Shown here: positions 35,504 through 38,489 of the stretch, one piece after another
How positions within the stretch are numbered: the first letter of the stretch is position 1
Layout: each line of letters begins with the position of its first letter
Assembly: GCA_943353165.1 (NCBI GenBank)
Contig: CALRAM010000002.1
Location: 1,716 to 65,715 of the forward strand
Direction: 5' to 3'
DNA: 64,000 bases
Origin: an uncultured Candidatus Saccharimonas sp.
Lineage (GTDB): Bacteria > Patescibacteriota > Saccharimonadia > Saccharimonadales > OMJO01
The notes under the pieces: generated by a model
What the model was told of the DNA's origin: nothing
The model's input: only the letters and a program-made list of their open reading frames with translations
Database searches by the model: none
Translations under genes and position numbers: made by a program

Positions 35504-36127
35504 TCACTTTTTAAATACAGAAATTGTGCCGATATGTTTTTGGTATGAGTTGGTATAGATAACTCCGCCGTCTTCGGGTATGCAAATAATATTTGTCTTA
35601 TTATCGCTCATTAGAATATTGATCATACTAGTTGGAAAGTCGCGATGATTGTAGTGCGGTATTACTGAAAAACCATTGAGCATATCTAATCCTAAATTAA
35701 CCTGATGAGGCCACTCATTTCTGGGGGCAGTGCGTATAGTCTTTCCTAGGATTATAGCACCAGCGCTACCGCCATATAATACACAACCTTTTTCTAATTG
35801 TTCACGTATGAATACATGAATATTATGCTGTTTTATTACATCCAGTAGATGTCCCGTATTACCTCCGCCAATATAGACTGTGTCGTATAACTGCTCAAGA
35901 AGTGATGCGTCTGGGTTGTGTTCATCAAACACACTTACTGAAGATATATATTTATAGTTTTTCGTGAACCATTCGCAAGCTGTACTGTAGTCTTTTAGAG
36001 CAAGAGCAGTGGGGATGTAGAGGCATTTAATGTCGCCTTTAGGTAAAAGCTTCTTGTATTCAGCGTCGAGTCTTCGAGATTGATGCTCGTCTCCACCACC
36101 TCCAAGTATGATTACGCCATCCATCAT
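35504..36127 (-). CDS. Peptidase S51 family protein, paralog 2
   Basis: CLYIP, VYIGGGNTGHLL, LYGGSAGAIILG and IPHYN motifs. Starts 2 nt after the stop of the SAM synthetase gene. Confidence 0.7.
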   Translation of the reverse strand: MMDGVIILGGGGDEHQSRRLDAEYKKLLPKGDIKCLYIPTALALKDYSTACEWFTKNYKYISSVSVFDEHNPDASLLEQLYDTVYIGGGNTGHLLDVIKQHNIHVFIREQLEKGCVLYGGSAGAIILGKTIRTAPRNEWPHQVNLGLDMLNGFSVIPHYNHRDFPTSMINILMSDNKTNIICIPEDGGVIYTNSYQKHIGTISVFKK

Positions 36128-36129
36128 TG

Positions 36130-37380
36130 CTAATGGTTGACGAGGTTACCGGCAATAAATTCATCAGTAATCTCAGGAATTTTTAAAAGCTCCTCTTCCA
36201 CGATCTGTTTAACGGTATTAGCATCCGCTTCGGTCGTTATACGGGTGTGCCAAGGTTTTAAGAGCATGCCTCCATTCTGTGAGACTATTTCAACGATATT
36301 AGAAAACCCTGTTTCATCATAAATACGTTTGGCGATTTTCTTGGTGCAGACCGCGTATATAAAACCTGCGTAGTATCGAGGATTTTTTCCGTTAGTGCCT
36401 TCCATCGACATCGGTTTCCTTGAGGTTATTAGTCCATTGGTCCGATTTCCGCGACCGACTACGCCAATATCTCCCGAAAGAGACGCTCCGCTTACTGTTA
36501 AATAGAAGTTTTGTGTTTCGTATTTGTCTTTTGTGTTAGTTGATATATTTACTTTATAGTCAGGAAGCTCATTCTCACAAAATACGTGCATTTCTGATGT
36601 AATCATATCAAGGTTTTTCTTGTAAGCTTCATAATCTGGCACATAGGCTGCAATTTGAGGTATACAAGCGGTAATGTCAACATTTATACCCTCCCTATAA
36701 GCCATAACTTTTATATCGGTGCCTAGCCATTTGTTTTCTTTACGTTTTTTATCGCTGGTAAGGTGTCGTTCAAGCTTAATCACAGTTGATTCAAGTGGGC
36801 TAAGTGGTTCATATGCAACACAGAACGATGTGTCATTGGCCACGACGTCTTCATAGCCCCGTACAGATGTTTTTTCTACGGGACTAAACATGTTGGCGAT
36901 TGAGCCTTTGCTTTCTTTGAGTGTGCCAGGTCCAGCATAAGATGTAAGAAGATCAATAATTTTTACTGTATCGTCAAACTCAATCATTGGGAATTTAGCA
37001 GCGAAGTAACTGCGTAAAACATCCTCGATTAAATCTTCAACTGGTAGTTTTTTACCCAAGAAGCTGCGAGAGATGCGACCAGAAAGTACGATTATAATGG
37101 GTTCAACAAATTTTCCTTTGCCGAACGCGACTTCTGTTTTTCCGCCAATCATCATAAGTTTATCGATTTGATGGTGTAATACCATACCGTCGCAATGTTC
37201 AGTCGTGTAGGCGGAATATTTTTGCGAAATTAATGACGATAATTCATCACAGATTGAGTCAGGATGTCCGGCACCTTTCCGTTCAATTAACTCACTGTCT
37301 ATATCGAGCATAGGATTTGTACTAACTACATCAATTTTTCCTGCTTTTACAGATTTTTGACCTATCTTATAACTTCCCAT
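36130..37380 (-). CDS. Archaeal-type S-adenosylmethionine synthetase (methionine adenosyltransferase)
   Basis: [14 protein letters not shown] and [37 protein letters not shown] match the archaeal MAT family signature rather than bacterial MetK. Starts 2 nt after the radical-SAM stop. Confidence 0.85.
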   Translation of the reverse strand: [416 protein letters not shown]

Positions 37381-37382
37381 AC

Positions 37383-38489
37383 TTAATCTCTCTTACTTTT
37401 ATCTTTAATAAAAACTTGCGTTGTTTGAATTATCTCGCCTCGCAGACCCATAATCCTTGCATTAATTGTTCTGTCGGTGTGATTGCAATCTGTGCATTTT
37501 ACTCCTTCTAGTAATTTATCTCTAGAATGTTTGGACGACTCCCATAGACTCCTAAATGAACCATTATTCGCTTCAAGCGAACCAAAAAGTTCACCGTTTG
37601 GATCATCTGGCTGAGAGGCTAGGCAGCACGAAAACACCTCTCCGTAGGGGTTTAGGGCAATTTTGAAATAGGGTACTATGCAGGGATTGCCTGTAATCCG
37701 AGTTAGTTCTTCGTTGGTGCGAATAACGAGTGCATCACCATATATATTTGTGAGGCTGTTCAGTACTTCCTGTAACTCAGCTATCTGCGAATCATCAGGT
37801 TTAATAATGCCATATATATCCTGCTTATAGACTAAACGGTCAATGCCTAAGCTACCAAGTAGATAATTTGCTGTTTTCTGGACGCTTTCAGGGTTGCTAT
37901 TGATCCTACCTAGAATTGCTGTGGCATTTATCTGTAATCGAGGATCAGTAGCTGATTCACGAACATCGACTATCCTACGCATATTTGCAAGAGTCTTCGA
38001 TACTGCTGGATTATCTTCGTGCAGCCCTCTTATCCGATTGTATTCTTGCTGGTTGGTCGTATCTATACTAAATCTTAGCTCATCAATATCTAACAGATAC
38101 TGATCAACTTCCTCGGGTATTTGATTACCGTGAGTTATTAGGCGAGTTCTCATAGTTCGGCTACCAAGATTTGAAAGTAGTCTATCGATTCCCTTATATA
38201 AAAAGGGCTCACCGCCACCCGATACTGATATTTCTTGGACGCCCATTTCTTCGGCCTCGTCAAACAGATCGGAATATTGATCGACGGAGAGCATTTCGTT
38301 TCGCCGAGTCGCGTCATTTCCTACGCCGCCATGGAAGCAATAAGAACAACGATGATTGCAAAGATCTGTCGGATGCACCTCCACTACAATCGGGGCAGGA
38401 TCCTGGCCTAGATCACGTGCAGACAAAACAGATTCAATCGCATCGATCTGCAGCTGTTCGTGTGGGGTAAAAGTGTTCGTAACAGGCAT
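37383..38489 (-). CDS. Radical SAM enzyme (function unknown)
   Basis: CNHRCSYC (CxxxCxxC) cluster motif, SVSGGGEPFLY (GGE motif), and additional C-terminal Cys residues ([13 protein letters not shown]). Confidence 0.85.
   Translation of the reverse strand: MPVTNTFTPHEQLQIDAIESVLSARDLGQDPAPIVVEVHPTDLCNHRCSYCFHGGVGNDATRRNEMLSVDQYSDLFDEAEEMGVQEISVSGGGEPFLYKGIDRLLSNLGSRTMRTRLITHGNQIPEEVDQYLLDIDELRFSIDTTNQQEYNRIRGLHEDNPAVSKTLANMRRIVDVRESATDPRLQINATAILGRINSNPESVQKTANYLLGSLGIDRLVYKQDIYGIIKPDDSQIAELQEVLNSLTNIYGDALVIRTNEELTRITGNPCIVPYFKIALNPYGEVFSCCLASQPDDPNGELFGSLEANNGSFRSLWESSKHSRDKLLEGVKCTDCNHTDRTINARIMGLRGEIIQTTQVFIKDKSKRD

Follow-up and report, generated by a model that had tools for sequence, protein, structure and literature searches.

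A six-gene cassette around an archaeal-type methionine adenosyltransferase homologue in Saccharibacteria, a candidate modified-nucleoside pathway

Introduction

Why does a bacterium keep an archaeal-type methionine adenosyltransferase (MAT) in the same run of genes as a radical S-adenosylmethionine (SAM) enzyme and an S51-family hydrolase? The question is raised by a 64,000-nt stretch of DNA from an uncultured Candidatus Saccharimonas sp. (GenBank assembly GCA_943353165.1, contig CALRAM010000002.1, positions 1,716 to 65,715), referred to here in its entirety as the window. A first-pass annotation of this sequence had proposed that the MAT either supplies SAM to the radical-SAM enzyme or transfers a nucleosyl group onto a non-methionine substrate. 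We find that the three genes are half of a six-gene cassette (window 32555-38489), the other half of which encodes a bacterial-type seryl-tRNA synthetase (SerRS), a second S51 paralogue (S51b; the first is S51a) and a protein, X, that is a truncated homologue of archaeal-type alanyl-tRNA synthetase (AlaRS). The same locus occurs on several contigs of metagenome-assembled genomes (MAGs), and the cassette as a whole is rare and horizontally spread across Saccharibacteria, other Patescibacteria, a Woesearchaeota MAG, Myxococcota and Lentzea. We propose, with our judgement evenly divided for and against, that it is a horizontally mobile modified-nucleoside pathway whose end product would be an aminoacyl-nucleoside antimetabolite.

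Results

The MAT of the cassette belongs to the archaeal family, as the first-pass annotation had read from its motifs, and matches PF01941 over nearly its full length (E=5.2e-91; residues 16-411 align with positions 5-394 of a profile 395 positions long). Its best match in the PDB is MjMAT (E=2e-57). Identity to the canonical archaeal enzymes TkMAT, MjMAT and SsMAT is about 35%, and the protein scores under every NCBIfam MAT cutoff (best 278 bits against 435; others 236-272 against 481-577). A search of 5.8 billion proteins returned 533 matches at E<=1e-10. Among the best 120 of these 533, which we examined, about 100 clusters (90% identity) share at least 46% identity with the window MAT, and below them identity steps down to about 35-43%. 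This close clade includes Hyalangium rubrum and other Myxococcota, Actinomycetota, Ardenticatenaceae, Woesearchaeota and Patescibacteria.

We sorted the MATs into three groups by a motif survey combined with the published active-site description of TkMAT, from which residue roles and numbering are taken (PMC3853416), and with the MjMAT L147A/I351A structures. Group A comprises the window MAT and about 97 relatives and carries the motifs LHHQxD, GPGTxxxSxGxIxxMF, SLSGDIG, GKNPRYYsGFIY and VSQNGG. Group B is 34-40% identical to the window MAT and keeps the canonical catalytic residues (LHHNFD, SIESGDEG, GKNPVYHVGK), and Group C contains the canonical archaeal MATs (LHHN.D, G.GS.DL..F, SAE.GDDG, GKNPV.H.GKIYN, SQIG). 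In TkMAT numbering, the window MAT retains the catalytic His33, the adenine-stacking Tyr271, the ribose- and amine-contacting Asp201 and Asp283, and the carboxylate residues His62 and Asn161, together with the motifs GAGHPD, FYLTVSG, GTDIKVM, SGDIG, LHH, VANDTSF, GRGNR and SGKNP. Since the catalytic His, the stacking Tyr, the ribose Asp, GRGNR and SGKNP are all kept, nucleosyl transfer from a nucleoside triphosphate (NTP) is still plausible for Group A.

The substitutions that set Group A apart fall on positions touching the methionine carboxylate, the methionine side chain and adenine N6. Asn64, which contacts the methionine carboxylate in TkMAT, is replaced by Gln (LHHQID in the window), Asp284 by Ile, and the methyl-pocket residue Ile351 of MjMAT by Asn (VSQNGG); the acidic SAExGDDG has become SLSGDIG and NHVGK has become RYYsGF. 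The gating loop, a known determinant of nucleotide choice in archaeal MATs, is five residues longer and lacks the Asp144/Leu145 pair. These changes are uniform in the approximately 97 members and distinguish them from Groups B and C. As judged from sequence, the amino-acid side of the pocket and the nucleotide-choice loop appear to have been remodelled, and the window MAT does not look like a housekeeping enzyme. Of the two roles suggested in the first-pass annotation, transfer onto a non-methionine substrate gains support from Asn64 to Gln, the altered loop and Ile351 to Asn.

The company kept by these genes separates the three groups in the same way. Loci were collected by exact look-ups, a scan of species-representative genomes and a metagenome scan; a close MAT relative (at least 43% identity) was required for Group A, and partners were counted by tblastn within 8 kb of the MAT. 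The pattern used in the metagenome scan (ERKGxGHPD) is generic, and most of its 80 loci are canonical archaeal MATs that served as a negative control. A member of the cassette's radical-SAM family lies within 2 kb of the MAT in 14/14 independent Group A loci (window, L085, L014, L007, L008, L086/L088, L009, L012, L005, L013, L010, L089, L090 and L091) and directly beside it, with gaps of 5-132 nt, in 12 of them, so that the coupling noted in the window is specific rather than a product of chance. No such member was found in the 16 Group B loci (L092-L107). X accompanies the MAT in 10/14 Group A and 8/16 Group B loci, an S51 hydrolase in 8/14 and 8/16, and SerRS in 3/14 and 7/16; all four partners score 0/60 in Group C, a control limited by the many short contigs in that group. 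The three Group A contexts in which SerRS adjoins the cassette, each with its own flanks, are the window, L085 and Lentzea indica (L014); it also adjoins the cassette genes in the seven Group B loci.

The Group A hosts include a Woesearchaeota MAG (L009), a member of the Patescibacteria (L012) and three Myxococcota (L005, from Hyalangium, L013 and L010). L085 is a 76%-identical relative of the window in which the flanking genes differ. In Lentzea indica the order is radical SAM-MAT-unknown-IMPase-X with SerRS convergent; this copy (L014:7565-15156, strain PSKA42, a cultured actinomycete) is the closest one outside the Candidate Phyla Radiation (CPR), at 65% identity for the MAT and 45% for the radical-SAM enzyme. 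Saccharibacteria are epibionts of Actinobacteria, and a transfer of the cassette between symbiont and host lineage is conceivable. A carbamoyltransferase, an amidohydrolase and an HD phosphohydrolase accompany the Group A cassette in L008 and L086, and L085 carries a His_Phos phosphatase. An S66 peptidase (LD-carboxypeptidase/MccF-type, L086:767-1801) is encoded about 6 kb from the cassette in L086, where coincidence is possible; MccF-type enzymes detoxify aminoacyl-nucleotide antibiotics. The myxococcal loci L005 (9000-14133) and L013 (4350-9403) carry no X or S51 and have in their place a RimK-type ATP-grasp ligase together with an AAA_28 kinase and a B12-binding radical-SAM protein; the ligase is, like X in the proposal below, an amide-bond former. 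The Hyalangium rubrum cassette adjoins MbtH, thioesterase, CmlA-like and polyketide synthase/non-ribosomal peptide synthetase genes.

The Group B operons have the appearance of nucleoside-type gene clusters, forming a family that is so far uncharacterised. Examples are HAD-MAT-X-S51-SerRS-ThyA-like-deoxynucleoside kinase (dNK) in L097 (3021-9890), MAT-X-S51-PHP-GT1-PIG-L in L095 (8101-13753), and MAT-X-radical SAM of another family-DegT-GT1 with SerRS nearby in L099 (463-7654). Apart from the radical-SAM protein of L099, the Group B loci show no evident SAM consumer or methyltransferase. A distant homologue in Streptomonospora is surrounded by genes for GT2, a sugar isomerase, an oxidoreductase, a carbamoyltransferase, NUDIX and HAD proteins. 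The distribution suggests that the ancestral association was MAT, X, S51 and SerRS within nucleoside- or sugar-type clusters, and that the radical-SAM enzyme is a clade-specific addition coinciding with the remodelled pocket of the Group A MAT. Because X, S51 and SerRS stay with the MAT in the sister clade even though the radical-SAM gene is missing there, the MAT product is more likely a pathway scaffold than simply a source of cofactor for that enzyme.

The radical-SAM enzyme matches PF04055 (E=1e-14, 55 bits against a cutoff of 29.5) and, slightly under the cutoff, the SPASM family PF13186 (20.6 bits against 21.5), giving an architecture of a radical-SAM core followed by a C-terminal twitch or partial-SPASM region. 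The CxxxCxxC motif (C44/C48/C51) is invariant in the family alignment. The extra C-terminal cysteines to which the first-pass annotation had drawn attention are real and conserved: none of C270, C288, C289, C332 and C335 varies among 33 family members, a degree of conservation that favours a possible auxiliary [4Fe-4S] cluster. The family signature consists of CFHGG after the cluster motif, FSCCLGSQP...NG and C..CN.TD. A word-indexed search recovered 33 proteins at E<=1e-45 and one truncated member at 1e-38, with the next match only at 1e-16; in an exhaustive profile search, about 29 representatives (50% identity) fell at E<=3e-68 and 418 proteins at E<=1e-30. All NCBIfam subfamily cutoffs were missed by a wide margin (TIGR04317, the best, 65.7 bits against 380; viperin_w_prok 57 against 180; MoaA 56.6 against 284; DesII 32.8 against 450). 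The enzyme thus lies outside the characterised housekeeping subfamilies and belongs to a small unnamed family.

Its AlphaFold2 model (mean pLDDT 91.7) is closest by Foldseek to DesII (TM-score on the query, TMq, 0.68-0.73), followed by SuiB, SkfB, viperin, PqqE, BlsE and MoaA, with TMq of about 0.52-0.58 for viperin, BlsE and MoaA. DesII, viperin, BlsE and MoaA are not peptide maturases and abstract hydrogen from sugars or nucleotides. A scan of IMG/VR with the family profile found no member, the best match being a generic radical-SAM protein at 26% identity, and on this ground the cassette is not considered phage-borne. Homologous radical-SAM domains are also carried by giant multidomain proteins, possibly eukaryotic (P0208, 6428 aa; P0239, 6442 aa; P0212; P0215; P0220). 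In P0215 the radical-SAM and SPASM domains are fused to a DegT/DnrJ sugar aminotransferase, and P0220 combines Radical_SAM matches in three stretches with an NAD sugar epimerase/dehydratase; fusions of this kind point to sugar chemistry for the radical-SAM family.

Protein X gives only weak matches to PF01411 and TIGR00344, below the Pfam cutoff. A profile of its family nevertheless matches the AlaRS of P. horikoshii and A. fulgidus at E=8e-22, and most members carry an N-terminal Cys4 ribbon of the archaeal AlaRS type, which is missing from the window copy. The top 26 Foldseek matches of its AlphaFold2 model (pLDDT 87.5) are all AlaRS structures, nearly all of them catalytic fragments, at a TMq of about 0.6 and with 13-16% identity between X and AlaRS. 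The protein corresponds to the aminoacylation domain and the first part of the tRNA-recognition domain and lacks the editing and C-Ala domains. Relative to E. coli AlaRS, X keeps the motif-2 Arg (QPVIR), the adenine-stacking Phe, the motif-3 GLER and the Asn matching E. coli N303 or A. fulgidus N359, which contacts U70 in AlaRS. Approximately E. coli residues 95-160 and the WN212 motif are absent, and the alignment ends before the Asp400 region, which reads G3. Asp235, which binds the alanine amine, is kept in most X proteins and is Glu in the window copy. Taken together, sequence and model identify X as a truncated archaeal-type AlaRS homologue. A split AlaRS, such as the alpha subunit of N. 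equitans, was considered as the main interpretation of X and dropped on account of the extreme divergence of X and its occurrence in bacterial hosts with large genomes.

Both hydrolases belong to PF03575 (S51a, E=8e-26, 91.5 bits; S51b, E=1e-15, 58.4 bits; cutoff 23.9). An alignment of S51a with Lmo0363 and PepE shows that both its nucleophile elbow (GGSAGA) and its histidine motif (PHY) are preserved, and the translation of S51b contains the same two motifs. S51a falls below the PepE equivalog cutoff (47.8 bits against 156), and the cyanophycinase equivalog cutoff is likewise not reached (36.8 against 126.6). The SerRS matches PF00587 (E=7e-37), with A. aeolicus SerRS as its best PDB match (E=7e-106).

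The six genes form two operons that converge on each other (Table 1). The junctions between the three minus-strand genes, read directly, are ...TAA-GT-ATG (radical SAM/MAT) and ...TAG-CA-ATG (MAT/S51a), confirming the 2-nt spacing described in the first-pass annotation, and all peptide motifs quoted there are present in the translations. The tight coupling is therefore real, although an operon of three genes is too narrow a unit, since the association crosses the convergent junction into SerRS-S51b-X. The plus-strand operon, of which SerRS is the first gene, is also tightly packed, with a 15-nt gap between SerRS and S51b and an 8-nt overlap between S51b and X. The stop codons of X and S51a are 2 nt apart on opposite strands, and no terminator or terminator-like hairpin was found between them (35499-35506). 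Run-through is expected from this arrangement, and each operon's transcript should read antisense into the other, an overlap that may serve mutual regulation. At a permissive threshold, an Rfam search covering 29-41 kb gave a tRNA-Glu at 40451 as its sole match, and neither a SAM riboswitch nor a T-box nor any other RNA element near the cassette.

Table 1 Features of the cassette and their positions in the window
Feature	Position	Strand	Description
SerRS-S51b-X operon promoter, candidate	32507..32535	plus	TTGACA-17-TAAAAT, 11/12; consensus match only
SerRS, bacterial-type	32555/32567..33844	plus	429 aa open reading frame (ORF), 425 aa by gene callers; PF00587
S51b, second S51 paralogue	33860..34522	plus	220 aa; PF03575
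X, truncated, divergent archaeal-type AlaRS homologue	34515..35501	plus	328 aa from ATG; longest ORF from 34416
Convergent junction	35499..35506	both	X stop TAG 35499-35501; S51a stop 35504-35506 (TCA on plus strand)
S51a hydrolase	35504..36127	minus	207 aa; PF03575
MAT-like enzyme	36130..37380	minus	416 aa; PF01941, archaeal-type fold, Group A
Radical-SAM enzyme	37383..38489	minus	368 aa; PF04055

The GC content of window 28001-38000, which includes the cassette and upstream two-component genes, is about 0.40 (about 0.445 in the SerRS gene) against 0.44-0.47 in most of the window, a mild hint of foreign origin. Directly upstream of the cassette, on the opposite strand (38924-40279), is a gene for a surface protein of DUF11/CLIPPER repeats, the C-terminus of which carries an LPNTG sortase signal and a membrane anchor. 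Further away, the minus strand encodes a 388-aa protein with seven RCC1 repeats (18270-19436; PF00415, E=5e-80).

Discussion

Based on these observations, we propose that the MAT-like enzyme would join an NTP to methionine or a methionine-like thioether, yielding an S-nucleosyl amino acid that acts as a scaffold and not just as a cofactor. That Group B retains its MAT without an evident SAM consumer is most simply explained if the MAT product is a pathway intermediate. The radical-SAM enzyme, similar in its twitch architecture to DesII and viperin, could then remodel the sugar by hydrogen abstraction, acting either on this scaffold or on the NTP from which it is made. Carrying its amino acid at C5', an S-nucleosyl amino acid resembles an aminoacyl-adenylate in shape and would fit the former Ala-AMP pocket of X, in which the adenine- and amine-binding residues are retained. 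We hypothesise that X works in the manner of AcmF of the ascamycin pathway and aminoacylates the nucleoside while holding it in this pocket, the probable donor being an aminoacyl-tRNA, for instance the Ser-tRNA of the neighbouring SerRS. Like AcmE in the ascamycin pathway, the S51 hydrolases could strip the aminoacyl group again, either to protect the producer or to activate the product. SerRS would be a supplier of Ser-tRNA or seryl-adenylate, a resistant target, or both, as AbmK is for albomycin. The accessory genes of Group A (carbamoyltransferase, amidohydrolase, HD, His_Phos and IMPase-family phosphatases) are those of nucleotide and nucleoside tailoring.

A number of points weigh against this proposal. 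Each mechanistic step is conjectural. X retains the pair of class II ATP-binding arginines and might therefore use its own adenylate instead of an aminoacyl-tRNA, that is, it could adenylate an amino acid itself, and a protein derived from AlaRS has no obvious fit with a SerRS partner. To our knowledge, an aminoacylated SAM-like compound corresponds to no known class of natural product, and it would be no obvious mimic of an aminoacyl-adenylate. The window SerRS looks like an ordinary bacterial SerRS that is not visibly divergent, and it may be the only SerRS of a small genome. The window cassette shows no evident transporter or regulator. In an Actinomycetota MAG, a member of the radical-SAM family (L011:9956-11023, 33% identity) has no MAT beside it, the sole exception that we saw to the pairing. 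The contig in question has an overall GC content of 0.53, yet its upstream ORFs are rich in GC at third codon positions.

The simplest alternative is that an ordinary SAM synthetase feeds the radical-SAM enzyme, with S51 trimming the substrate or product and the plus-strand genes unrelated. The full-length PF01941 match fits this explanation, as do the mostly retained catalytic and phosphate-binding motifs (GHPD, DIKVM, GRGNR, SGKNP) and the translational coupling of two genes that are always close together; archaeal MATs are, moreover, naturally promiscuous, so that sequence change need not mean a new substrate. Dedicated supply does not account for Group B, which keeps X, S51 and SerRS without this radical-SAM family or an evident methyltransferase, nor for plus-strand genes that co-occur with the MAT across phyla or for substitutions fixed at the methionine-carboxylate, side-chain and adenine-N6 contacts. 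Myxococcota and Actinomycetota, which possess bacterial MetK, have the cassette as well, and we regard cofactor supply as an unlikely explanation, though one to be kept in mind. Under housekeeping synteny of a reduced genome, the cell would have no SAM synthetase but the MAT and no SerRS but the one in the cassette, and X would supply the catalytic half of an AlaRS split like that of Nanoarchaeum equitans, whose alpha subunit is similar in extent to X. The host is a member of the Saccharibacteria and its SerRS looks canonical; no metK was found among the 17 window ORFs scanned with Pfam, and no alaS or second serS was identified among the annotated window ORFs, many ORFs having been left unscanned. 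The first-pass annotation had named a clade-wide housekeeping role for the MAT as an objection to its own proposal, and the rarity of Group A means that its MAT cannot be such an enzyme: close relatives amount to about 100 clusters, some of them from Myxococcota and Actinomycetota, and the best 120 of 533 matches already fall to 35% identity, in spite of the many Saccharibacteria genomes that have been sequenced. Lentzea indica and Hyalangium rubrum, moreover, are free-living with large genomes, X is very divergent (13-16% identity to AlaRS, residues 95-160 or so missing, Asp235 to Glu in the window), and the genes that flank the block in the window are not those that flank it in L085. Simple synteny is on these grounds quite improbable.

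Two further explanations assign the cassette to RNA or to phages. If X bound the acceptor stem, the radical-SAM enzyme could modify a tRNA nucleoside with SAM from the MAT, and SerRS and S51 would act on the charged tRNA. There are two proteins of aminoacyl-tRNA synthetase (aaRS) type in the cassette, X keeps the acceptor-stem-contacting Asn, radical-SAM tRNA modifiers exist, and the radical-SAM enzyme has a weak NCBIfam match to TYW1. This is nevertheless hard to reconcile with related loci that carry GT1, PIG-L, DegT, carbamoyltransferase, ThyA-like, dNK, HAD, NUDIX and HD genes, a repertoire of small-molecule nucleoside and sugar chemistry, or with a radical-SAM fold nearest to DesII, a sugar-nucleotide enzyme; neither a tRNA gene nor a T-box is associated with the cassette, and we consider a tRNA module to have a slim chance of being correct. 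Least probable of all, to the point of being hardly credible, is anti-phage defence of the prokaryotic viperin type, in which the radical-SAM enzyme, helped by the others, would produce a nucleotide analogue that acts as a chain terminator. PADLOC pVip does match the N-terminal half of the radical-SAM enzyme (E=8.5e-17), as does NCBIfam viperin_w_prok (E=1.6e-15), the distribution across phyla is patchy, and a weak ParE-toxin Pfam match lies nearby in L007. The viperin matches, whose bit score is given above, cover the generic radical-SAM core and end near residue 197, leaving the five-Cys twitch region outside, and DesII is the better structural match. We down-weight defence because pVip is matched only in part and the other five cassette proteins match no PADLOC model; in addition, IMG/VR holds no family member and the neighbours are not defence genes.

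A bolder form of the modified-nucleoside proposal, which we put forward tentatively and think unlikely to hold in full, is that the Group A and B MATs found a new class of nucleoside natural products, in which an S-nucleosyl scaffold is turned into a Trojan-horse antimetabolite targeting SerRS. The scaffold would be SAM or a non-methionine, non-adenine analogue, its sugar would be remodelled by the new radical-SAM family, and aminoacylation would be carried out by a tRNA-dependent transferase derived from AlaRS. For episymbiotic CPR bacteria such as Saccharibacteria and for DPANN archaea, this would be among a very small number of secondary-metabolite pathways that they carry, possibly exchanged with, or directed against, actinobacterial hosts.

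If the modified-nucleoside proposal is true, enzymes of the SAM-synthetase fold would count among the scaffold-forming enzymes of secondary metabolism. AcmF would be no lone curiosity, and AlaRS-derived aminoacyl transferases would be a family across bacteria and archaea. Few if any biosynthetic gene clusters are attributed to Saccharibacteria, DPANN archaea and similar ultra-small organisms, and a compact antimetabolite pathway with a bearing on their host interactions would be an addition. With six genes, the cassette is a short and tractable target for heterologous expression, SerRS offers a resistance-gene handle for finding a possible new aaRS inhibitor, and the Lentzea indica strain provides a tractable experimental entry point.

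Relation to known systems

Searches of the literature on archaeal-type MATs with radical-SAM genes in clusters, on PF01941 and on archaeal SAM synthetases in Patescibacteria found no description of the cassette. Its logic, as far as analogy goes, resembles that of the aminoacyl-nucleoside pathways of ascamycin and albomycin. In the ascamycin pathway of Streptomyces sp. 80H647, AcmF is a truncated AlaRS-like protein consisting of the aminoacylation and tRNA-recognition domains only, with a reported D232E change; it does not activate alanine but takes it from Ala-tRNA that the cluster's own AlaRS, AcmD, has charged and places it on the amine of an adenosine sulfamate, an aminoacylation that the hydrolase AcmE can undo (PMC12945691). 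X, compared with AcmF by description, has the same domain set and is likewise encoded beside a complete aaRS and hydrolases, and the Glu that replaces the alanine-amine-binding Asp in the window copy recalls D232E. Unlike AcmF, X keeps the motif-2 and motif-3 arginines. The cassette further differs from the ascamycin genes in that its aaRS is SerRS rather than AlaRS, its hydrolases are of the S51 family (GATase-1-like fold) rather than alpha/beta hydrolases, and its nucleoside scaffold would come from a MAT-like enzyme rather than from sulfamate chemistry.

In albomycin biosynthesis, the cluster SerRS AbmK provides activated serine and immunity, the radical-SAM enzyme AbmJ remodels the sugar ring, and an aaRS-type enzyme (AbmF is named in the pathway) attaches serine to the nucleoside (PMC9032320). 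A cluster-encoded SerRS, an aaRS-type protein and a radical-SAM enzyme are common to both systems, whereas a MAT-like enzyme, an S51 hydrolase and an AlaRS-like protein are not described for the albomycin pathway in that source. None of the albomycin core enzymes named there (AbmH, AbmD and those of the siderophore genes) was recognised among the window genes, a result reached without comparison of Abm sequences.

Among individual enzymes, the MAT shares the full-length PF01941 fold and catalytic residues with TkMAT, MjMAT and SsMAT (PMC3853416), and its clade differs from them in always lying close to a radical-SAM gene. The radical-SAM enzyme has in common with DesII, BlsE, viperin, MoaA and BtrN a partial TIM-barrel core with CxxxCxxC and a Cys-rich C-terminal region, but is only 14-20% identical to twitch and SPASM enzymes. 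The hydrolases share the PF03575 domain, the GxSxG nucleophile and the His motif with peptidase E and cyanophycinase (MEROPS S51), from which the cassette is distinguished by its two paralogues and by the lack of a cyanophycin synthetase context. New with respect to all of these systems are the MAT-fold enzyme as candidate scaffold former, its S51 partner, the radical-SAM family, and the occurrence of such a cassette in Saccharibacteria, other Patescibacteria and a DPANN archaeon.

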